This document shows, one piece after another, positions 30,178-51,808 of a stretch of 64,000 nucleotides of DNA (positions within the stretch are counted from its first letter, which is position 1; the number at the start of each line of letters is the position of its first letter). The translations under genes were made by a program, and so were the position numbers. Where the stretch lies: the NCBI GenBank assembly GCA_001792115.1, contig MGFX01000001.1:240606-304605 (forward strand), given 5' to 3'. The DNA is from Candidatus Woesebacteria bacterium RBG_16_42_24. Lineage in GTDB: Bacteria > Patescibacteriota > Microgenomatia > UBA8517. The notes under the pieces were generated by a model. It was given only the letters and a program-made list of their open reading frames with translations, did no database searches and was not told the origin of the DNA.

Positions 30178-32346
30178 ATGCCGGCGGAAGTAACTAAAAA
30201 GAAAGCTGCCATGGTTATGACGGTCACCAAGGACCGCGTGGTTCCTTTGGAAAAGATCCGAAATATCGGCATTATTGCCCATATCGACGCGGGTAAGACT
30301 ACCACCACCGAAAGAGTCCTTTTTGAAACAGGAAAAACTTATAAACAAGGTTCGGTCGATGAGGGAACCACTGTTACCGACTGGATGGCGCAGGAGCGCG
30401 AGCGAGGAATAACCATAGTTTCAGCAGCAATTACTACTTTCTGGGATCTCCAGACGGGCTCTGCAATTGAAAACGGGCACTACAGAATAAATATTATTGA
30501 TACCCCTGGGCATATTGATTTTACTGCTGAGGTCGAACGTTCACTTCGAGTTCTCGACGGGGCGATTATGGTTTTTGACGGAAGAACCGGGGTTGAGAGC
30601 CAATCCGAAACAGTCTGGCGTCAAGCCGATAAATATCACGTCCCTAGAATTTGCGTTCTAAATAAGCTAAACCTCATCGGAGCCGACTTTGAAGGCTCAA
30701 TAAAATCAATCCATGAACGACTTGGGGCAAATGCGGCCCCTGTTACTATCCCAATAGGGATTGAACACGCCCATACCGGAGTGGTTGACCTAATAAGAAT
30801 GAAGGCATTAACCTATAAGGGAATTGAGGATAACAAACTTACCGAGGGGGAAATTCCGGCTGACTTGATAGATGAGGCCAAGAAGTATAGAAAAGCTCTT
30901 ATAGAAAAAGTTTCGGAATACGACGATGAGGCTTTGGCAAAATATCTTGAAGGTTCGGAACCTTCAGAGGTTGAACTTAAAAGGGCAATCAGAAAAGGAG
31001 TCATTGCCGGCAAATTCTTTCCGATATTCGGAGGAGACAATAGGACGGTAGAGGTGCGTCTTCTTCTTGACGGAGTTACCGAATATCTTCCCTCACCCCT
31101 AGATTTACCTGCAGTTTCCGGAACCAATCCCAAAACCGGAGAAAAAGAACTTCGGGAAAGAAAAAACGAAGCGCCCTTCTCGGCTTTGGCCTTCAAAGTA
31201 ACGACCGACCCGCACGTTGGGCGGCTGGTTTATTTAAGAATTTACTCCGGGAAATTAGGTTCCGGTCAGGTTGTTTATAACACTACCGAACAGAAGCAGG
31301 AAAGAATAGGCAAACTCGTTCTTCTTCACGCAGACCAGAGGGAATTAATAGACTCGGCATACGCCGGAGAAATAGTCGCCGCAGTCGGAATTAAAGATAC
31401 TACAACCGGAGATACACTCTGTGATCCGGGACACCCCATACTTCTTGAGTCAATTTCATTTCCCGAGCCCGTAATTTCACTTGCAATCGAGCCGGCGACG
31501 AAGTCTGACCAGGAGAAAATGGGTTTAGCCTTAAATAAGCTTTCTGACGAGGACCCGACATTTAGAATTAAATCTAACCTCGAAACCGGTCAAACAATTA
31601 TTTCCGGAATGGGGGAACTACAGCTCGAAGTTTTGGTGGATAGGATGAAGAGGGAGTTTAACGTCGAGGCGGGAACGGGTGCCCCGCAGGTGGCCTACAA
31701 GGAAACTATCAAAAAAATTGCCGAAGGAGAGGGAAAATATATCCGTCAAACAGGAGGTCGGGGGCAATACGGGCATTGTCTTATTCGCGTTGAACCCAGG
31801 GGTCGAGGGGAAGGCTATGAATTTAAATCCGAAATCAAAGGTGGAGCAATTCCGTCTGAGTTTATACCGGCAATAGAGAAAGGAGTGCATGAGAAGCTCG
31901 AAAACGGAATACTGGCGGGCTTCCCTATGGTAGATATTTTTGTCGCGGTTTATGACGGAAGTTTCCACGATGTGGACTCCTCAGAGATTGCCTTCAAAAT
32001 CGCTGGATCCTTGGCAGTTGAGGAGGCGGCAAGAAATGCCGACTTGATCCTACTTGAGCCAATAATGAAGGTAGAAGTATCTACCCCGGAGGAATTCATG
32101 GGAGATGTTATCGGGGATCTATCGGCCAAGCGTGCCCAAATCCAGGGTACGGAGAAAAAGGGAACAGTTACAATTATTAATGCCATGGCCCCCCTGGCCG
32201 AGCTTTCGGGGTATGCCACAAAATTGCGCTCAATTTCCCAAGGAAGGGCAAGTTATTACATGGAACCTTCCCACTATGAGGAGGTTCCAAAGAACATTGC
32301 CGAACAAATTGTGGCAAAAAGTGGCAAGGCTGCCCCATCAAACTAG
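30178..32346 (+). CDS. fusA: Elongation factor G
   Basis: GTPase motifs are present (AHIDAGKTT, DTPGH, NKLN). 722 aa. Confidence 0.95.
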   Translation: MPAEVTKKKAAMVMTVTKDRVVPLEKIRNIGIIAHIDAGKTTTTERVLFETGKTYKQGSVDEGTTVTDWMAQERERGITIVSAAITTFWDLQTGSAIENGHYRINIIDTPGHIDFTAEVERSLRVLDGAIMVFDGRTGVESQSETVWRQADKYHVPRICVLNKLNLIGADFEGSIKSIHERLGANAAPVTIPIGIEHAHTGVVDLIRMKALTYKGIEDNKLTEGEIPADLIDEAKKYRKALIEKVSEYDDEALAKYLEGSEPSEVELKRAIRKGVIAGKFFPIFGGDNRTVEVRLLLDGVTEYLPSPLDLPAVSGTNPKTGEKELRERKNEAPFSALAFKVTTDPHVGRLVYLRIYSGKLGSGQVVYNTTEQKQERIGKLVLLHADQRELIDSAYAGEIVAAVGIKDTTTGDTLCDPGHPILLESISFPEPVISLAIEPATKSDQEKMGLALNKLSDEDPTFRIKSNLETGQTIISGMGELQLEVLVDRMKREFNVEAGTGAPQVAYKETIKKIAEGEGKYIRQTGGRGQYGHCLIRVEPRGRGEGYEFKSEIKGGAIPSEFIPAIEKGVHEKLENGILAGFPMVDIFVAVYDGSFHDVDSSEIAFKIAGSLAVEEAARNADLILLEPIMKVEVSTPEEFMGDVIGDLSAKRAQIQGTEKKGTVTIINAMAPLAELSGYATKLRSISQGRASYYMEPSHYEEVPKNIAEQIVAKSGKAAPSN

Positions 32347-32358
32347 TTATAATAAAGT

Positions 32359-32724
32359 GTGATTGAGAAGTTAAAGACTTATACTTCAAAACTTAGTTTC
32401 TGGTGGCCAATTGTGCTTGTTCCAATCTGGCAAGAATTAGTCTTTAGATATCTTCCGTATCGATTTATTTATCTTCCCATTGGTAAATTTTGGGAAGTAG
32501 GACTTCTGTCAAACATTGTTTTTGCTACTCTCCACTGGTACATAGGAAAGTGGTTTACCATCTGGGCATTTTTGTGGGGAATAATATTGTGGTGGGTAAT
32601 GGGTAGGTACGGTTTGATTCCAGCAATTTTGCTCCACTCTCTTGTAAATGTAGTTGATCTTAGGTTTGGAATTAGAAAGCTTTTCAGAAATAAACATGGA
32701 GCTGAAATTAATGGGGGTCTATAA
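32359..32724 (+). CDS. CPBP-family intramembrane metalloprotease (CAAX protease / Abi domain)
   Basis: EELVFRY (the EExxxR motif), FATLHW and HSLVN are present within a polytopic membrane protein. Confidence 0.7.
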   Translation: MIEKLKTYTSKLSFWWPIVLVPIWQELVFRYLPYRFIYLPIGKFWEVGLLSNIVFATLHWYIGKWFTIWAFLWGIILWWVMGRYGLIPAILLHSLVNVVDLRFGIRKLFRNKHGAEINGGL

Positions 32725-32737
32725 GTAACTTTTTAAC

Positions 32738-33310
32738 ATGAAACAAGTTTTTATTATCCACGGCTGGGGAGGGAGTTCCGAGAAGGACTGGATTCCTTGG
32801 GCAAAAAGAGTTTTGGTGCAGAAAGGCTTTGAAGTACATATACCGACCATGCCCGATACCGACAATCCCGTAATTGATAAGTGGGTTGGACACTTAGCCA
32901 AAGAGATTGGAGAAATTGACAAAGACACCGTTCTTATCGGGCATTCAATCGGTTGCCAGACTATCTTGAGGTATTTGGAAGGCTTTTCTACCGGAAGTAG
33001 GATTGGTAAAGTAATATTGATTGCCCCCTGGGTAAGTTTAAAGAATTTAACGAGTGAGGAAGAACCGATTGCGAGGCCCTGGGAAGAAACCCAGATAAAT
33101 TTCGATTCACTCAAGAGCAAGGCGGGTTCATATGTAGCTGTTTTTTCAGATGACGATCCCGTGGTTCCTTATGAAGAAAATATAAAAGTCTTTAAAGAAA
33201 AATTAGGAGCACAAATAATCTCTAAGCACAAAATGGGGCATTTCAGCCAAGACGAAGGAATAACAGAAATTCCTTTTCTTCTTGACCTTATTGGAACGAG
33301 TTACCAATGA
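32738..33310 (+). CDS. Alpha/beta hydrolase, YdeN/RBBP9-like serine hydrolase
   Basis: The nucleophile elbow is GHSIGC. Downstream Asp/His residues (DDDPVVPY...GHF) complete the triad. 190 aa. Confidence 0.7.
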   Translation: MKQVFIIHGWGGSSEKDWIPWAKRVLVQKGFEVHIPTMPDTDNPVIDKWVGHLAKEIGEIDKDTVLIGHSIGCQTILRYLEGFSTGSRIGKVILIAPWVSLKNLTSEEEPIARPWEETQINFDSLKSKAGSYVAVFSDDDPVVPYEENIKVFKEKLGAQIISKHKMGHFSQDEGITEIPFLLDLIGTSYQ

Positions 33311-33447: not shown

Positions 33448-34647
33448 ATGGCAGCTGAAGCAAGACAAAAGTTTGATAGAACCAAGCCGCACGTAAATGT
33501 CGGAACTATTGGTCATGTGGACCATGGAAAAACGACCCTAACCGCGGCAATTACCACGGTTCTATCTAAGCAAGCAGGAAATAAAACAAAACCCCTAAAG
33601 TTCGACGAGATAGATAACGCCCCAGAAGAGAAGGAAAGGGGAGTTACTATTAACATTTCCCACGTCGAGTACGAGACAGAAAAGCGCCACTACGCCCACA
33701 TCGACGCCCCGGGACACGCCGACTACATCAAAAACATGATTACAGGAGCGGCCCAGATGGACGGGGCAATTTTAGTCATTTCCGCGGCAGATGGTCCCAT
33801 GCCCCAAACCCGAGAGCACGTAATTTTGGCCCGCCAGGTCAATGTCCCCGCAATTGTAGTTTTCCTCAATAAAGTCGACACGGTCGATGATCCTGAAATT
33901 CTTGATTTAGTCGAGGCAGATGTGCGTGACCTTCTTAAGAAATACGAATACCCCGGGGATAAAGTACCCATAATCAGGGGGAGCGCACTCAAGGCACTCG
34001 AGGGAGACAAAGAGCAGGAGGCCAAAATTCTGGAGCTTATGAAGGCGGTTGACGAATCTATCCCCGAGCCGGTCCGCGACACCGAAAAACCCTTTATTAT
34101 GCCTGTCGAGGACGTATTTGCTATCAAGGGTCGAGGGACGGTTGTTACGGGCAGGGTTGAGCGAGGAAAACTTAAAATTAACGAAGAGGTCGAGATAGTC
34201 GGGCTTAGGGAAACCAAAAAGGTTGTGGTAACTGGACTTGAGATGTTCAGAAAAACCCTCGATGAAACAGTTGCCGGGGATAATGTCGGGGCACTACTTC
34301 GCGGAATCGAAAAGGACGACGTCGAGCGAGGACAGGTTCTCGCCAAGCCGGGCTCAATTACTCCTCATACTGAATTTGACGCGGAAGTCTATATTCTTTC
34401 AAAAGAAGAGGGAGGCCGCCACACGCCGTTTTTTACCGGTTATAAGCCCCAGTTCTACGTCAGAACCGCGGATGTTACAGGGGACGTTGCACTCCCTACA
34501 GGAATCGAAATGGTCATGCCCGGAGACAATGCCAAAATGAAGGTTAAACTCATCCAACCCGTTGCCATGGAAGAGGGACTTAGATTTGCTATTCGAGAAG
34601 GTGGTAGCACGGTTGGTGCCGGAGTTATCACCAAAATTATAGCTTAA
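33448..34647 (+). CDS. tuf: Elongation factor Tu
   Basis: [18 protein letters not shown] and NKVD are present. 399 aa. Confidence 0.95.
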
Positions 34648-34695: not shown

Positions 34696-35004
34696 ATGCC
34701 GGTAGGAAGATTACGAGTCAAGCTAAAATCCTACGACCACCGTGTCATCGACGAGGCGGCAGGAAAGATATTGGATACGGCCCTGGCGACCGGAGCTAAA
34801 ATAGTTGGCCCCATTCCCCTCCCCACAACACGCACCATAATGAGCGTTAAAGAATCCCCTTTTACCGATAAAGATGCGCAAGAGCATTACGAGATGCTGG
34901 TCCATAAAAGGCTAATCGATATCATCGACCCCAGTGAGCGCACAATTGATTCCCTCTCCAATCTCGACCTCCCCGCAGGTGTCAGTATAGAAATCAAAAT
35001 GTAG
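34696..35004 (+). CDS. rpsJ: 30S ribosomal protein S10
   Basis: 102 aa, S10 family (RLRVKLKSYDHRVIDEA...). Confidence 0.95.
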   Translation: MPVGRLRVKLKSYDHRVIDEAAGKILDTALATGAKIVGPIPLPTTRTIMSVKESPFTDKDAQEHYEMLVHKRLIDIIDPSERTIDSLSNLDLPAGVSIEIKM

Positions 35005-35172
35005 TTTTACTACATTTTCTGACACCGATTGCCCCTCCGAATCGCCCTTCGAGCCGTGTATGAATAATACGGGAAAGGCGAGAAGTAAGATTGTGTGGGG
35101 CAGGAGTTGCGATCGAAATCAAGATGTAGGGCGAAACTCCGTTTGCCCCTCCGAATCGCTCTTCGAGCCGTG
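34973..35172. repeat. Tandem imperfect direct repeat of the rpsJ 3' end plus 30-nt downstream box
   Basis: Copy A is 34973-35058 (gcaggtgtcagtatagaaatcaaaatgtag ... ttgcccctccgaatcgcccttcgagccgtg). Copy B is 35100-35172 (gcaggagttgcgatcgaaatcaagatgtag ... ttgcccctccgaatcgctcttcgagccgtg). A third degenerate copy of the 'atcgaRatYaagatgtag' segment lies at 35809-35826. Confidence 0.7.
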
Positions 35173-35214
35173 GCAGCTTGAATCTTTTCCGCATTTTCTT
35201 CATAGTGAAGAAGT

Positions 35215-35784
35215 ATGAAAAAGAATTCTTCCGATGAACGGGGTAGCGTTCCTGTAATAATCGGAGTAATTATTCTCGCGATAGTCGTATTTGGAATATC
35301 TTATTGGACCTACTTCAAATACTACAGACTCGCCTATACTGACAAAACCTATAATTTTTCACTAATGAATCGCAGAGGGTGGCACGAACTTCCAAAAGAA
35401 GAAGGCGTGTATTATTCATTGGGCACATCCGATGTTCCAGGCGGAAAGGTGGTATCGACCTTCAGGATATCGCCGATTACCCGGAAGGATGATACTAGCA
35501 TTACAGACTCTTCTTCATTCCAAAAAATATGCAGCGACCTAATTAAAGAAATAAACTACACAATCCTGGGCTGGTTTGATGTAAGGTATAGCGGTTTAGA
35601 GGGACATGTTTGTAAAAGTGAGGGAAAGGCTGCCGATATAGATAGAATAAACATTTTCAGTATCTATTTACTTATGAATCCGGGCGGGACATACGATTAT
35701 ATGATCTTCACGACTTATCCAAAAGGAAACCTAGTTGAGGAAGCGAAAGTGAATGAGATGTTGCGTTACTTCCACGCAGATTAA
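35215..35784 (+). CDS. Hypothetical membrane-anchored protein
   Basis: An N-terminal TM helix (VPVIIGVIILAIVVFGISYW) is present. No recognisable motifs. Confidence 0.4.
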   Translation: MKKNSSDERGSVPVIIGVIILAIVVFGISYWTYFKYYRLAYTDKTYNFSLMNRRGWHELPKEEGVYYSLGTSDVPGGKVVSTFRISPITRKDDTSITDSSSFQKICSDLIKEINYTILGWFDVRYSGLEGHVCKSEGKAADIDRINIFSIYLLMNPGGTYDYMIFTTYPKGNLVEEAKVNEMLRYFHAD

Positions 35785-35870
35785 AAGTAGAGTTAATATT
35801 AATTTCCCATCGAGATTAAGATGTAGTTTCTCGCGCCAGCCTCGGAAAAGTTGTATAATCCGTCCCTGTT

Positions 35871-36386
35871 GTGACTAAAGAAGTCGCCATAACCCCTGAG
35901 AGCCAGCGTGAGCTGGTTAGGGCGTTTTTGGCAAAACTTGGAGGGGTTGCCATCGCGACGCCAGATATGAGTAGGGACTACAAATTTGTAGCCGTACTGC
36001 CTGAATTAGACGAATGGACTCGGCTTTTTTCGTATGACGGCGCTTCAGTAAAACCCGACTCTATATGGGAAAAATTACACATTCAGAATGTAAATATTAC
36101 TGACTCGACAATGATTTTTTTACGAATAGATGGCAATGTTGCAAAGACAAAAATTGTCGAGGTAGATACTGCCGGATGGGATGAGACTGATTTACAAAGA
36201 GGACACGTTTTGGGATTTAGAGAAAAACCGTTAGTTTTTGATAGGGCACAAAGGATTCTTAGTCATTTGAAAAAAACGGCCTCAAGATTCTTTGTGGTGG
36301 GGTTTCCCATAGACAATCCCAACGACCATAAGCTTATGGTTCCTATCAGAATGGGTGGGGACGATATAGGCGAAGACGATTTTTAA
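35871..36386 (+). CDS. Hypothetical protein (GTG start, 12 nt after a TATAAT box)
   Basis: ORF with coding-like composition. A TATAAT box lies upstream at 35853-35858. Confidence 0.4.
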   Translation: MTKEVAITPESQRELVRAFLAKLGGVAIATPDMSRDYKFVAVLPELDEWTRLFSYDGASVKPDSIWEKLHIQNVNITDSTMIFLRIDGNVAKTKIVEVDTAGWDETDLQRGHVLGFREKPLVFDRAQRILSHLKKTASRFFVVGFPIDNPNDHKLMVPIRMGGDDIGEDDF

Positions 36387-36654
36387 AAAAGCAAAAACTA
36401 TTTTCCGCCTTCACCTACATTTTGGCGGATGAAATAGAAAGAAGGTCGAAAAAATCGTAATATAATCAAAATGGAGAGAGAACAGCAGATTGTTGAAGCA
36501 AAACGAGTTTTGCGCCGACAACTTAGCCTTCGGGGTAAACCACATACGCGGCATATAAGGATGCACCGTCAGGCCGCCGAAGATAATCATAACAGACTCC
36601 CCGCCCCACGAATTTAAGTGGCAACTTTAGCTTCAAAGGGGTAGAATCTAGAAA

Positions 36655-37095
36655 GTGTTAAAGGTGAATGACAAAGCTCCCGAGTTTAAACTACCCGATC
36701 AAAAGGGCAATTTACACAGCCTTAGCGATTATAAAGGGGGTTGGCTTTTGATTTATTTTTATCCGAAGGATTTTACTCCGGGTTGTACCAAAGAAGCCTG
36801 CTCATTCAGGGATAATTTTTCGCGCCTTAAAGACAAGCTGCAACTAGTTGGCATAAGCGGGGACAGCGTAGAAAGCCACAAAAATTTCAGCGAAAAGTAT
36901 AATTTACCTTTTACAATACTTTCCGATCCGGAAAGAAAAGCGATAAAAAATTACGGCACAAATGGACTGATTTTTGCCAAAAGAACTTCTTTTTTAATAA
37001 ACCCTCAAGGAACAATTGAGAAAATTTACGAAAAAGTCGATCCCACCACCCACGCCGAAGAAATCCTTAAAGACATTTCTTCCCTGACAGCTTAA
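36655..37095 (+). CDS. bcp: Peroxiredoxin, Bcp-type thiol peroxidase
   Basis: The FTPGCTKEAC peroxidatic-cysteine motif is present. 146 aa. Confidence 0.8.
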   Translation: MLKVNDKAPEFKLPDQKGNLHSLSDYKGGWLLIYFYPKDFTPGCTKEACSFRDNFSRLKDKLQLVGISGDSVESHKNFSEKYNLPFTILSDPERKAIKNYGTNGLIFAKRTSFLINPQGTIEKIYEKVDPTTHAEEILKDISSLTA

Positions 37096-37190
37096 ATCAT
37101 CCTTTGAAAATCTGGCAAATTTAACCCCTAGAGAGCCTGCAACGTTAAAATTTTGGTTAATAATTATTTACGTTGTAAAATACGGGCAGA

Positions 37191-37664
37191 GTGACTGATA
37201 TAGACGCTTTAACCAATAAATCAAAAAAGGTAATCGACACAATTGAATATATCGATCTTGCAACCATAACCGAAGATGGAAAGCCCTGGAACTCACCTTT
37301 ATGGTTTGTAAGAGACGATAAGTACAACCTTTATTTTTACTCACCCAAATACACCCAACATTCAGAGAATATAAGAAACAACGGCAATGGATTTGTTGTT
37401 ATTTACGACTCGAGAGCTCCGGAAGGCACAGGATTCGGAGTCTATATGACGGTTGAAGTGAAAGAGCTAAATACGGTTTCCGAGGTCGACGAAGCCCTCA
37501 AATGGGTTTATAAGAAAAAGAAAAAGAAAAGGACACCGCAGGAGTTTTTGGGCAATTCCCCTAGAAGGATTTACAAGGTTACTCCCAAGGAGGCCTGGGT
37601 AAATGACGCTGAATTGAAAAATGGTTTTTACCTAGACTATCGAATTCCAATAAAACTTACATAA
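37191..37664 (+). CDS. Pyridoxamine 5'-phosphate oxidase-like FMN-binding split-barrel protein
   Basis: LATITEDGKPWNSPLWFVRDDKYNLYFYS is typical of the PNPOx-like / general stress protein 26 family. Confidence 0.55.
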   Translation: MTDIDALTNKSKKVIDTIEYIDLATITEDGKPWNSPLWFVRDDKYNLYFYSPKYTQHSENIRNNGNGFVVIYDSRAPEGTGFGVYMTVEVKELNTVSEVDEALKWVYKKKKKKRTPQEFLGNSPRRIYKVTPKEAWVNDAELKNGFYLDYRIPIKLT

Positions 37665-37670
37665 ATAAAT

Positions 37671-38138
37671 ATGGGCAGTGTGAATAAGAAAAAACTAGTA
37701 ACTTTTTTAACCGGGGCTCGTGCAAACACCTATGCGGCTGGTAAGGGAAAGGTAAAACCAGTTTTTCCGGGCTCGACCCAGCTTGAATATAAGGAGGGAG
37801 ACTGGCTATATCGCGACATTTACAATTTGGGAAATAAAATCTTCGTGGGTCTTGAGACAGTCTATTTCAAGGGGAAACCCGTCTGGTCGATGTGCTATTA
37901 CGGAGATTTTAAAAAAATGACGGAAAAAGAAATTGATGAGATTCTGCGGGAAGCCTTAATTAAATACAAAGATAAAGTAAGACTTTGGTACCAGGTGGAG
38001 TGGAAAAACAAAAACTTCAAGTATATTTGCACACCCGACTCCCGAGAAGGCATAGAAGAAGTGTCCGGACTCGAGGAAATTTATAAAGACCGAGAGAAAG
38101 TTTATTATCTTTATTACGCCGGCGGCCTCATAGGCTAA
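37671..38138 (+). CDS. Hypothetical protein, DUF5680-like
   Basis: YAAGKGKVKPVFPGSTQLEYKEGDWLYRD...GKPVWSMCYYG resembles a family that I know only as a domain of unknown function. Confidence 0.35.
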   Translation: MGSVNKKKLVTFLTGARANTYAAGKGKVKPVFPGSTQLEYKEGDWLYRDIYNLGNKIFVGLETVYFKGKPVWSMCYYGDFKKMTEKEIDEILREALIKYKDKVRLWYQVEWKNKNFKYICTPDSREGIEEVSGLEEIYKDREKVYYLYYAGGLIG

Positions 38139-38205
38139 CGGCACATTCCTCGCCCCAGCCTCGGTCATATTTTTATTTGAACACTGGGAAATTCGAAGGC
38201 GGGAA

Positions 38206-38904
38206 GTGTTAAAATCAATTGTGAAATTTGACCCGGTTAAGCACTGGAACGATCGCCATTTCGAACTTCCAAAAAATAGAGATACTTCTTCTTACGCGAA
38301 AGACAAAGAAAAATTTTTTCCTCGAAATTCCCTAGTCTGTGATTTGGGTGGCGGTGTTGGAATAGACTCAAATTACTTTTTAGATAAAGGACATGAAGTC
38401 TACCTTCTGGACATTTCTGACTATGCGCTCAAGGCTGCCCGCAACACTGCGGTTTCAAAAGGCCTTGGCTCCCACCTCATTACCAAAGAGGTAGATTTTT
38501 CGGTAGGTATGTTTCCTCTGGAAGACGGTTTGGTCGATATTGTCTATTCAAGGCTTGCCCTTCATTACTTTCCCCTCGATCGTATGAAAGAAATATTTTC
38601 CGAAATTTATAGAATTTTAAAAAATGGAGGGAAGGCGTTCATAGCCGTAAAGTCGCCCGACGACAAAAGGGAAATGGGAGCCCTCAGAAAAATTGCAAAG
38701 GAAACAAGTCCTGGAATTTTTGACGAAAACGGCCTGATTAAAACTAGATTTACAAAAGTGCAGTACAAAACAGTTCTTAAAAAAGCCGGAGTGTTAAGTT
38801 TTGAAGTGCGAGATTGTGTTGAACATTTTGGTAAAGGTAAAGTTTATGTTAAATCCAAAGCAGAAAAACTTCTATATATAGAAATCATAATAAATAAAGT
38901 TTGA
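38206..38904 (+). CDS. Class I SAM-dependent methyltransferase (small-molecule type)
   Basis: The glycine-rich motif I is VCDLGGGVGID. LDISDYAL follows, with post-I motifs (VDIVYSRLALHY ... LKNGGKAFI). Confidence 0.7.
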   Translation: MLKSIVKFDPVKHWNDRHFELPKNRDTSSYAKDKEKFFPRNSLVCDLGGGVGIDSNYFLDKGHEVYLLDISDYALKAARNTAVSKGLGSHLITKEVDFSVGMFPLEDGLVDIVYSRLALHYFPLDRMKEIFSEIYRILKNGGKAFIAVKSPDDKREMGALRKIAKETSPGIFDENGLIKTRFTKVQYKTVLKKAGVLSFEVRDCVEHFGKGKVYVKSKAEKLLYIEIIINKV

Positions 38905-39125
38905 CTTTCGGGATTTTTAAATTAAGGGGTCCGGCCCATTCATAAATCTCAATTTTAATCCTGAGTGAAATCGAAGGATTATAATCCCGAGCGAACTTGT
39001 TCTGAGTAACCTCGAAGGAGTCGAGGGACTTCTGGCAACTTTAGCCTCGAGAGAGTAGAGTACCTCAAAGTTATTTCATGGACAGGTTGGGCCATTGACA
39101 ATATGACAAATTTATCATAATATAA

Positions 39126-39422
39126 ATGAAGTTAATTTTTGATCCTAGGGCTGAAAAGTTCCTGGATAAAATTAGGGACAAAGAAAGAACAAAGGTATTT
39201 GAATATATTCTTTTATTCGAGGAATACGGATTTGAACTTGATAACAGATACCTTAAGAAGGTAACGAAAAATATTTGGGAGTTAAGGCCTAAAAATATAA
39301 GACTATTTTTTATCAAGAGAGCCACAAATTATTTAATCGTTCACGCAATGTATAAAAAATCCCAGAAAATAACCAAGAAAACGCTAAAATTGTTAGAAAA
39401 AAGAATTAAAAGTTACCTATGA
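39126..39422 (+). CDS. Type II toxin, HigB/RelE superfamily (phage Gp49-like)
   Basis: WELRPKNIRLFF... is characteristic of Gp49/HigB-like toxins. Its 3' end overlaps the downstream HTH gene by 4 nt. Confidence 0.6.
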   Translation: MKLIFDPRAEKFLDKIRDKERTKVFEYILLFEEYGFELDNRYLKKVTKNIWELRPKNIRLFFIKRATNYLIVHAMYKKSQKITKKTLKLLEKRIKSYL

Positions 39423-39730
39423 AAGCAAAAAAAATAGACACATCGAAATTCATTACTTTCCACGAGCTTAGAAGAAAGTGGATGAAAGATCCGGAGTTTG
39501 TAAGGGAGTGGGAAAAGTTAGAGCCCCACTATCAAATAGCAAGACAAATGGTTGGGGCCAGAATCAAAAAGAAAATGTCCCAGGAGGAACTTGCCAAAAA
39601 AATTGGAACCGGGCAGGCGGTAATTTCAAGACTCGAAGGAATGAATGCCAAGCCATCAATTTCACTTTTGAAAAGAGTTGCCGACGCATTGGACACACCA
39701 ATAAAAATAACAATTAACCCCGATCGGTAG
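39419..39730 (+). CDS. XRE-family HTH antitoxin (HigA-like)
   Basis: HTH: MSQEELAKKIGTGQAVISRLE. The C-terminal region is DUF-like (KPSISLLKRVADAL). Confidence 0.65.
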   Translation: MKAKKIDTSKFITFHELRRKWMKDPEFVREWEKLEPHYQIARQMVGARIKKKMSQEELAKKIGTGQAVISRLEGMNAKPSISLLKRVADALDTPIKITINPDR

Positions 39731-39788
39731 GCCATTCTAGATTCTGGCAACTTTAGCTTCAACCTCGGGAAAGTAGTAGAATATCCAA

Positions 39789-50548: not shown

Positions 50549-50860
50549 TTACCAGCGCCTAGATTGCCTTTGCCCTCCGCCTCCTCTGTCATATCCCGCG
50601 GAACTTCTTTCCTCTCGCGGCCTTGCTTCATTGACTATGATTTTTCTTCCACCAAAATCCTTACCGGAAAGCTCTTTTATAGCTTTATCGGCGTCTGCGT
50701 CATTTTTATATTCTACAAAACCGAATCCTTTTCCTTGACCGGAATATCTGTCGGTAATGACTGTTGCGCTTGCAACCTCACCAATTTCTGCGAAAAATTG
50801 ACTGAGTTCTGCGTCAGTAGCGGTGTAGGGAAGACCTCCTACGAATAATCTTTTTGCCAT
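50549..50860 (-). CDS. RRM-type glycine-rich RNA-binding protein
   Basis: RNP-2 is LFVGGL and RNP-1 is KGFGFVEY. The C-terminus is RGG-rich. Confidence 0.75.
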   Translation of the reverse strand: MAKRLFVGGLPYTATDAELSQFFAEIGEVASATVITDRYSGQGKGFGFVEYKNDADADKAIKELSGKDFGGRKIIVNEARPREERSSAGYDRGGGGQRQSRRW

Positions 50861-51679: not shown

Positions 51680-51708
51680 TTGACGTCTGAAGCTAAATGA
51701 TTTATAAT
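51680..51708 (+). promoter_or_regulatory. Sigma70-type promoter (TTGACG-N17-TATAAT) restoring transcription into rplC and the S10/spc genes downstream of the island
   Basis: -35 at 51680-51685 and -10 at 51703-51708. Confidence 0.6.
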
Positions 51709-51808
51709 CTTGGCATCAATGGAGGTGACTAGCCAGAAATAACCTCTACATAAGAAGTAGGATGTGCCAGTTGAGGGCGCCTCCGGCGCCTTTTTTTGTG
51801 AGAAAAAG

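Follow-up and report, generated by a model that had tools for sequence, protein, structure and literature searches.

Partial copies of the rpsJ 3′ end in a Candidatus Woesebacteria genome record two successive insertions of a small structured module

The gene for ribosomal protein S10, rpsJ, is followed by two further partial copies of its own 3′ end in a 64-kb stretch of DNA (hereafter the window) from a member of Candidatus Woesebacteria (Microgenomates, candidate phyla radiation (CPR)). The three ends are shown here to have been left by a small non-coding module that inserted twice in succession within the final ~30 nt of rpsJ. This unit measures ~115-125 nt and is structured, and modules of the same build (gene end, hairpin, rod-like hairpin, second gene end) are found in at least 15 other Woesebacteria/Microgenomates. 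The full account given below, which combines module insertions, an RNA element and spread by recombination without an integrase, is in our judgement favoured slightly on balance. With their tiny genomes, CPR bacteria offer few mobile elements that can be recognised and no genetics, and their gene gain is poorly understood. Loci and contigs of relatives are given as L numbers.

Three copies of the rpsJ end

The gene and its end copies are as follows.
34696-35004, + strand: rpsJ (ribosomal protein S10), an intact 102-aa open reading frame (ORF), from the ORF list and tblastn to 80 relatives
34975-35004, + strand: end1, the last 30 nt of rpsJ, with module-type codons (codon usage compared with native ends)
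35100-35129, + strand: end2, a second rpsJ end (AGVAIEIKM-stop), formerly functional as the end of E2, of the TCG/CGAAACTCC type, a live gene end in L097 and L104
35804-35826, + strand: end3, the displaced native rpsJ end, now a pseudo-end (TTCCCATCGAGATTAAGATGTAG), from relatives' native ends

In a repeat search, end1 and end2 are identical at 23 of 30 positions and the segments behind them, 35022-35058 and 35136-35172, at 34 of 37, and a third end copy lies at 35804-35826. The degenerate pattern ATHGARATHAARATGTAG, which encodes IEIKM-stop, has exactly three matches in 64 kb, at 34987, 35112 and 35809, against a chance expectation of 0.26, and none of 100 shuffles gave three; a 30-nt box within the second repeat pair occurs twice where none is expected. 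Translated, end2 reads AGVAIEIKM-stop where the gene reads AGVSIEIKM-stop, with four of the five differing codons synonymous, and end3 reads IEIKM-stop, its differences from the gene being almost all synonymous. The three copies are coding-derived partial rpsJ ends. A preliminary description of the window had reported the tandem copies of the end and of the box, as well as a degenerate third copy; the tandem copies are real, with coordinates accurate to within 2-5 nt, and the third copy is present at 35804-35826.

Copies one and two with their boxes resemble 1.6 tandem units of ~115-125 nt, as might be left by local tandem duplication, replication slippage or an assembly artefact. Ten contigs with identical S10, from at least nine independent ENA/JGI samples, are 100% identical to window 34900-35900, which excludes the artefact that the preliminary description had named as fatal to its proposal. 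Drift of a plain tandem duplicate would not produce this pattern: the non-coding box pair (34/37) is far more alike than the coding pair (23/30), whose differences are mostly synonymous. Moreover, the two units have different arm types, each of which occurs separately in other species, and the same build is met again in at least 15 species and at rpsG. This origin is already refuted, and we give it next to no credence.

A hairpin and a rod form the module

The modules and their parts are as follows.
34975-35099, + strand: module E1, consisting of end1, the P0 arm and a complete rod
34978-35026, + strand: hairpin P0, with a coding left arm (GGTGTCAG ... AAAATGTAG, stop codon included) and the right arm CTACATTTT-CTGACACC
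35025-35102, + strand: rod 1, an irregular hairpin of ~78 nt (covariance model, 93.9 bits, E = 1.5e-20)
35100 to ~35803, + strand: module E2, consisting of end2, arm 2, a 5′ half-rod and ORF189; older, of a different arm type, degenerate
35103-35140, + strand: hairpin P0′ of module E2 (GGAGTTGCG ... CGAAACTCC), from the sequence and comparison with L097 and L104
35133-35175, + strand: second rod, 5′ half only, i.e. box copy 2 (nhmmer, model positions 13-55, E = 8.5e-6)
35215-35784, + strand: ORF189, cargo of E2, a 189-aa ORFan with an N terminus hydrophobic by eye

Hairpin P0 has a folding energy of -24.1 kcal/mol (z = -3.9) and forms helix 1 of an alignment from 14 genomes, where four of its eight pairs show compensatory changes. 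The rod consists of P1 (UGCCCC/GGGGCA), P1b, P2a, an invariant 2x2 tandem G.A loop, P2b, P3 and a GAAUA loop, and the 30-nt box of the preliminary description is its 5′ half. Across 14 distinct modules aligned over P0 and rod there are 29 pairs, with 96.3% of cells paired and compensatory changes at 17 of the 29, a result that none of 500 shuffles reaches and that compares with at most five in slid controls. Since G.U pairs (~12) far outnumber A.C pairs (1), the + strand is the folded one, as RNA or single-stranded DNA. Conserved structure, compensatory changes and + strand sense together are the marks of a structured cis-acting RNA. An Rfam 15 scan of 29000-53000 at E ≤ 1 returned only a DUF3800-IX RNA at 40447-40515 and left the rod unmatched, and no group I/II intron, ribozyme or ribosomal-protein (r-protein) leader family of Rfam 15 matches the rod. 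The rod is a new structured element, well supported by covariation and tied to translation-gene junctions. Tandem G.A internal loops are often protein-bound, and this loop, together with the restriction to such junctions, suggests that the rod may be a protein-binding or processing signal. A reading of GCUCUUUGAG in the rod as BoxA, the NusB/S10 site, was rejected: the segment is paired and covaries, and many members are without the motif.

In module E2, hairpin P0′ has one stem mismatch, which comes from TCG>GCG; the stem is perfect in L097 and L104. No 3′ half of the second rod was found downstream, and the covariance model detects only rod 1 in the window; in the half-rod region of the same-species contig L081 it gives a marginal full-model match (13.9 bits, E = 0.52), too weak to count. 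ORF189 has no Pfam match and, in 5.8 billion proteins, matches only itself (Candidatus Woesebacteria bacterium RBG_19FT_COMBO_42_9).

Native end and order of insertions

The register of a repeat-flanked insertion is formally ambiguous, and the assignment of the native end rests on codon usage and relatives. The codon usage of end2 matches that of 56 module-less native ends, whereas end1 has a distinct codon set that pairs with the arm (GCA in 14/14, GAA in 14/14, AAA in 13/14, AGY in 9/14). For L020, five close relatives without the module have native ends that agree with end2 at 20-23 of 27 positions but with end1 at only 17-20 of 27. Thus, the module sits before the native end and supplies end1. 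In the window, 22 of the 23 positions of end3 match the native end GTTTCCATCGAGATTAAGATGTAA of the closest clade (L114; S10 95% identical), which end2 of L093 likewise matches.

The order in the window is rpsJ, E1 as a complete and empty module, E2, the native pseudo-end end3, a native-type promoter and the rest of a 16.8-kb island of accessory and defence genes. The TCG/CGAAACTCC type of end2 and its arm forms the live gene end in L097 and L104. Its window copy has undergone a T>G change (TCG>GCG), non-synonymous and at the same time disruptive to the stem, as would be expected of an end displaced by E1. The arrangement of the sequence points to at least two serial insertions into a regenerated terminus, the newest nearest the gene. 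Serial insertion into the gene end had been proposed in the preliminary description, and the staggered coding-derived copies, the native end3 and the displaced end2 uphold it. The same description took the copies to mark the boundary of the island, which they do not: copies one and two bracket a 95-nt structured element, copies two and three bracket one ORFan (679 nt), and the other ~16 kb lie beyond end3. It was right that the terminus had received insertions, but these were small structured modules and not the island.

Behind end3 comes one more feature.
35827-35859, + strand: promoter-like region (CTCGCG..CCAGCCTCGG..TTGTATAAT), directly after end3 and before the ORF at 35871-36386

It resembles the native rpsJ-rplC promoter of relatives (alignment with L117; family comparison), and this resemblance is the basis on which we call it a promoter-like, native-type region; a strict sigma-70 scan does not call it. 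It has a partial second copy at 38146-38164, with CTCGCSCCAGCCTCGG at both 35830 and 38149 (0.03 expected). The recurrence of tcgcgccagcctcgg, which had been read as part of the insertion scars, is real as a second copy, but it belongs to a promoter-like family repeated through the island and not to an attachment (att) site. This family, CTGGCAAMTTTARCC ... (A)GTnnTAnAAT, has seven sites (36618-42831) found only inside the island, and 35827-35859 and 38146-38164 share its spacer (CCTCGGRAAAGT). Each CTGGCAAMTTTARCC copy precedes a start codon, with clear -10-like boxes only ~8-17 nt from the start, a spacing that suggests short or leaderless mRNAs.

Recurrence in relatives and at other genes

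Rods were sought with a scaffold-only hidden Markov model (HMM) and a rod-only covariance model in related loci covering 10-20 kb around rpsJ per genome, ~1.6 Mb in total. Behind rpsJ they are present in four of 81 species-level genomes, namely the window, L019, L020 and L057, and in the last three the layout is rpsJ end, arm, ~80 nt and an in-frame second end. A metagenome pattern scan anchored on the rod/end2 junction gave 21 loci from ~12 further species; this pattern forces a coding-like distal copy, and only 4 + 1 modules come from searches free of it. The junction is the same at all rpsJ modules, TGGGGC directly followed by NGG. The apical part of the rod holds variable insertions (L057, L110, L093), which in L093 amount to a promoter and a 75-aa ORF inside the apical loop, and L010 appears to be a decayed copy.

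Rods are found at four kinds of site: behind rpsJ, behind rpsG (L057), in the rpsG-fusA spacer (L051) and in the 5′ untranslated region of rplC (L091). Those at L051 and L091 have no end copies, and by sequence reading each of the three non-rpsJ rods has a hairpin just upstream. Within the ~1.6 Mb, rods are confined to translation-gene junctions, all in the str/S10 cluster, with at most two per locus. The rpsG case of L057, found without bias toward coding-like copies, has a P0-like hairpin and a rod between two S7 ends, NRAFSHFRW-stop and NRAFAHFRW-stop. The proximal end reads AGG GCC TTT AGT CAC TTT CGC TGG TAG and is followed by arm and rod; the distal end reads AGA GCT TTT GCG CAT TTC AGA TGG TAA, the same peptide except for S>A, re-coded over ~30 nt. 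In L101 and L104, which have no island, the module lies directly before the rplC promoter and leader, with end2 at native spacing. The preliminary description had held that tandem copies in island-less relatives would count against it; the end1-module-end2 arrangement of these two loci does so for the claim that the copies mark the island boundary.

Module-bearing genomes are scattered over the EF-Tu tree, and distances between rods are unrelated to those between their hosts (rho = -0.14, p = 0.7). Rod distance shows no significant correlation with end1 or end2 distance, for which 27 nt are too noisy. Species 91-98% identical in S10 to module bearers are without the module, as are six S10 variants near that of L057 that were checked with their contigs, and enlarging the sample through S10 homologues and their contigs gave no further rods. 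The scattered bearers, the incongruence between rod and host and the module-less near relatives indicate turnover of modules. Their distribution is patchy and does not follow host phylogeny.

The distribution bears on an alternative in which the module is an old, vertically inherited cis-regulatory RNA of the str/S10 cluster, with both ends functional, the module removed and the patchiness due to losses. Such an RNA would suit a distal copy that is in frame with a stop and shares lineage-specific residues, as well as a fold that joins the 5′ and 3′ flanks and rods that occur only at translation-gene junctions in ~1.6 Mb; in addition, in the four rpsJ modules found without bias, all eight variable end2 sites outside codon 4 are third positions. 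Against it stand the incongruence of rod and host distances, the apparently decayed L010 and the finding that end1 alone gives a complete protein. The Rfam scan gave no sign of a group I or II intron, and we know of no bacterial mechanism that splices such a rod. Read-through, frameshifting or hopping into end2 was rejected because the end1-end2 spacing is 107-145 nt with no constant frame, and so was a mini-ORF from the conserved TTG/ATG before end2, the start being, by sequence reading, absent or out of frame in L094, L101 and L106. We consider this alternative unlikely.

Some end copies adjoin cargo, and their lengths vary: 23 nt for end3 of the window, 17-27 nt in L004 and at least 45 nt in L075, where the second rpsJ end (HLELPAGVDIEVKM followed by a stop) has 11 differences, all synonymous by sequence reading. 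Variable lengths of this kind fit recombination junctions rather than one fixed att core. In L075 (10309-10953) a small ORF after rpsJ comes before the second rpsJ end, which is followed by another ORF start; this small ORF, like one in the gap of L080 (Daviesbacteria), resembles sigma-70 region 4/HTH by eye. The cargo directly behind the module of L057 (10445-11977, - strand) is a 510-aa NUDIX protein with a weak archaeo-eukaryotic-primase-like match at its C terminus (E = 4e-5, below the Pfam cut-off).

Searches for a recombinase or an attachment site

The insert is flanked by direct repeats of a gene 3′ end, the proximal copy of which completes the ORF, as is the case for integrative elements. 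One alternative is classical site-specific integration of elements with the rpsJ 3′ end in their attP, by an integrase of the tyrosine type whose gene would lie elsewhere in the genome or on an element that was lost or acts as a helper; the modules would then be what remains of att sites, or miniature elements moved in trans. Their layout has the same topology as e14 in icd with its icdC pseudo-end (PMC13626634), there is one junction at all rpsJ modules and a ~30-nt repeat at both rpsJ and rpsG, and modules stand in tandem in the window. However, the "elements" between the repeats are only 95 nt and 679 nt long. Pfam gave no integrase, resolvase or transposase match in the island ORFs or the rest of the window, in line with the statement of the preliminary description that no integrase is encoded here. 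Likewise, no integrase or transposase is among ten ORFs of loci with end copies, or among the 25 commonest of 66 families matched by 104 gap ORFs of relatives; these recombinase searches took in about 130 related loci, with 10-20 kb around rpsJ per genome, a trans-acting enzyme elsewhere being outside their scope. No att site of a phage was found either, since none of 2.9 million viral contigs has a rod with an rpsJ end or the rpsJ-end pattern. We think this alternative rather unlikely. The suggestion that the rpsJ terminus is attachment-like thus survives in its insertion topology, but site-specific integration is unsupported, with no integrase found and with cargo in relatives that usually lacks end duplication.

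Other targets and element types were considered. There is no tRNA or tmRNA in the window, and inspection of the 30-nt end revealed no palindromic arms of a dif/Xer-like site. An integron cassette array was rejected for the missing integrase (Pfam), the number of rods (at most two) and the L093 cargo, which lies inside the hairpin loop and not beside it. The template/variable repeats of a diversity-generating retroelement were rejected as the differences are not adenine-specific (e.g. C/T, AGT/GCG) and the repeat is only 30 nt; a reverse transcriptase occurs only in the window, 10 kb away, and in none of the reported families of other module-bearing loci. As for a miniature inverted-repeat transposable element (MITE), the palindrome is confirmed and there are four kinds of site in ~1.6 Mb of local loci, but no short target-site duplication was found, and neither TnpA nor TnpB is among the reported ORF families of these loci.

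RNA-guided homing is a further alternative, in which P0 and rod would be a guide scaffold and the ~30-nt native end the guide, with a nuclease, encoded elsewhere, that would attack rpsJ alleles free of the module, and end1 re-coded to escape. In TnpB/IscB omega-RNAs the guide is the flank of the transposon end. Here, too, a scaffold is followed by a 3′ segment that matches module-free alleles, and the functional end of the host differs from that segment at 6-10 of 27 positions; the structure is strand-specific, and retargeting to rpsG keeps the layout. On the other hand, no nuclease was found near any rod, be it in the window or among the reported families of relatives' gap ORFs and of copy-bearing loci, there is no Rfam match, and cargo inside the rod loop, as in L093, would be odd for a guide scaffold. 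This idea, which proceeds by analogy throughout, seems to us very improbable.

How modules may spread

A complete module comprises a replacement for the last nine codons and stop (end1, with its own codons, forming P0) and an ~80-nt rod; directly behind the rod comes the displaced original end, which keeps its former downstream sequence. In the account that we favour, the element most likely works as a + strand RNA, co-transcribed with tuf-rpsJ and probably forming a structured 3′ region at which the rpsJ message is closed. Modules have most likely spread between Woesebacteria without a dedicated integrase, by homologous/homeologous recombination or by homology-facilitated illegitimate recombination: incoming DNA would pair on the left through the conserved tuf-rpsJ, and the right junction would be resolved in the only homology available, the ~30-nt gene end. 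Recombination there would explain why the distal copy resembles the native end of the recipient. Homology-facilitated illegitimate recombination in natural transformation is an established process (PMC6382021). Loss is probably easy, through deletion between the two direct copies brought together by the hairpins. Such deletion between direct copies is general at repeat-flanked palindromes. The closest relatives of the window are only ~77% identical at the nucleotide level, and imported tracts are thus not finely mappable.

Several observations weigh against this account. There is no empty/occupied polymorphism, all ten same-species assemblies being identical, so that mobility is deduced and not observed. 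The fixed TGGGGC-NGG junction and the ~30 nt at rpsG hint at a ruler or a defined site and not at illegitimate joining. In the distal copy, frame and stop are preserved, as are the residues by which the functional end differs between lineages (N/N, D/D, V/V), and also Ser, for which in 9 of 16 cases one copy uses AGY and the other TCN; should the modules be old, such a copy would require protein-level selection even though it should not be translated. A "refresh" by recombination might account for its coding-like state, much of which is ascertainment, as most examples come from the metagenome pattern that forces it. The four rpsJ modules found by their scaffold nonetheless vary, codon 4 aside, at third positions of end2 only (eight sites), and the rpsG case is alike. 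Two readings follow: all insertions may be young, with end2 simply the recipient's native end, or protein-level selection acts on end2, in which case the module would have to be removed from the RNA or the DNA. Furthermore, ORF189 is placed in E2 by reconstruction, as the second rod has no 3′ half, and an rpsJ breakpoint (one difference in 115 nt between L102 and L123, then ~16%) was dropped because the 5′ 115 nt are hyper-conserved clade-wide.

Hairpin and rod might also constitute a tiny element of a kind not described before, specialised for the ends of essential r-protein genes. It would be either mobile in a site-specific or perhaps RNA-guided manner, with a re-coded end that lets it reside inside rpsJ or rpsG, or a removed intervening sequence with both ends selected; we hold this to be doubtful. 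If the module is mobile or RNA-guided, it would represent a new minimal class of element and might serve as a safe-harbour insertion device; selection on the distal copy, if real, would point to RNA or DNA processing of a new kind in these organisms. Under the favoured account, the locus would be a site of recurring integrase-free insertion into an essential gene, the insert bringing along a re-coded replacement of the gene end.

Relation to known systems

The closest known kind is the 3′-end-regenerating insertion of e14 into icd of E. coli, in which the gene receives its 3′ end from the element and icdC, a C-terminal pseudogene, is left on the other side of it (PMC13626634). As there, the insert of the window lies inside a gene 3′ end and supplies a functional end with mostly synonymous changes relative to the old one, a truncated pseudo-end remains at the far side, and repeated insertions leave staggered copies. 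Unlike e14, no mobility gene was found here, the unit is ~115-125 nt and non-coding, and the same junction occurs in many species and in a second gene. The present case is an integrase-less, miniature, structured and phylum-wide form of this kind. Other elements that target gene 3′ ends include phage 21 in icd, SGI1 in trmE and integrative and conjugative elements (ICEs) in fda, rpsI and rpmG.

Homology-facilitated illegitimate recombination (de Vries & Wackernagel 2002, Prudhomme 2002, summarised in PMC6382021) is similar in that no enzyme of the element is needed, and a conserved anchor (here tuf-rpsJ) plus very short homology suffices. Anchored recombination of this type explains both foreign cargo beside a conserved gene and the variable end copies (end3, L004, L075). 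The difference is that this process is only deduced here, and that the fixed rod-module junction needs a single origin followed by transfer of whole modules.

Small palindromic repeats and MITE-like elements include enterobacterial repetitive intergenic consensus (ERIC) and Correia elements, repetitive extragenic palindromes and bacterial interspersed mosaic elements (REP/BIME), and the Rickettsia palindromic elements. The rods resemble them as imperfect palindromes of 80-100 nt that are transcribed as parts of operons, occur at several intergenic sites and take apical insertions (L057, L110, L093), but are restricted to at most two copies per locus and to translation-gene junctions, and have a re-coded ~30-nt end and strand-specific covariation. 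Similarly, IS200/IS605 miniatures and TnpB omega-RNAs are hairpin-rich, gene-less units of ~120 nt whose 3′ flank is the unoccupied target, as here; in contrast, the modules have no TnpA/TnpB in the reported local families and no sequence or Rfam similarity to them, and possess a coding replacement end. R-protein leaders are likewise conserved structured RNAs at the boundaries of r-protein and elongation-factor genes, whereas the modules lie mostly behind rpsJ or rpsG, in ~5% of the species sampled, and are not in Rfam 15.

The island and the insertion-tolerant gap

The str/S10 cluster around the modules has the following landmarks.
30178-32346, + strand: fusA, part of the str/S10 cluster in the 64-kb window
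33448-34647, + strand: tuf, str/S10 cluster
51680-51808, + strand: native rplC promoter (TTGACG-17-TATAAT) and conserved leader with a terminator-like hairpin
51809, + strand: start of rplC, where the r-protein operon resumes behind its own promoter and leader

The genes fusA, tuf and rpsJ and the inserts between fusA and tuf are all on the + strand. In the window the rpsJ-rplC gap is 16.8 kb long, compared with 74 nt to 4.8 kb in 80 species, and is filled with co-oriented accessory and defence genes. By Pfam these are AhpC, PNPOx, DUF5680, a methyltransferase, a Gp49/HTH pair, two DUF3800 genes, MazG, a type II restriction-modification system, an HTH and reverse transcriptase pair, HicB, a DEAD helicase and a PD-(D/E)XK nuclease. 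The promoter and leader at 51680-51808 are the right-hand limit of the insertion-tolerant gap. Module-less relatives have a conserved promoter (CTTGCG..TGATATAAT) 2-10 nt past the rpsJ stop, followed by the leader with its terminator and rplC. Cargo in relatives is usually placed exactly between the rpsJ stop and this promoter, without end duplication, and varies even where S10 is identical, such relatives having either no cargo, NUDIX or a 153-aa ORF on the - strand. Throughout the phylum, the rpsJ-rplC junction is a hot spot of insertion, and the ~16 kb that make up the rest of the island arrived by other events in a generally insertion-tolerant gap.

Other junctions of the str cluster are likewise variably occupied. 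In the window, small genes for an Rce1-like protein and a Ser-hydrolase lie between fusA and tuf (32359-33310), and close relatives (L112-L116, 3542-4402), in contrast to other ones, have a DUF559/MTES_1575 gene between rpsG and fusA.

Within the island, the type II restriction-modification pair (42929-44958) consists of an N6/N4 DNA methylase and a TdeIII/HinfI-like endonuclease, and the sole annotated minus-strand gene (50549-50860) encodes a 103-aa RRM_1 RNA-binding protein. The Rfam DUF3800-IX RNA (40447-40515, - strand; 50.3 bits, E = 2.7e-8) lies directly downstream of one DUF3800 gene (39789-40415), the second of which is at 41581-42216. The contigs of three independent same-species assemblies stop at 45004. 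The following 680 nt (45004-45686) are non-coding and lie upstream of the HTH gene and reverse transcriptase (45687-47004); they may be a junction that varies between strains, or else a non-coding RNA belonging to a defence system based on the reverse transcriptase.

The rplC promoter and leader (GGAGGTG..., a helix, GGCGCCTCCGGCGCC and then a T-run) are common to Woesebacteria and present in most of L001-L080. The leader has no Rfam match and is a candidate unannotated r-protein leader or attenuator.

In rpsJ itself, nucleotides 1-115 are 93-99% identical within the clade of L102, L123, L013, L015 and L018, compared with 82-88% for the remaining gene, which suggests extra constraint or a conversion tract in the 5′ ~115 nt. 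Lastly, the same-species contig L087 differs from the window in fusA (31455-31878) by 79 mismatches, mostly three bases apart, and two gaps. The differences are confined to ~420 nt of fusA, the contig being identical elsewhere, including the repeat region, and this stretch looks like a recombination tract from a diverged donor.

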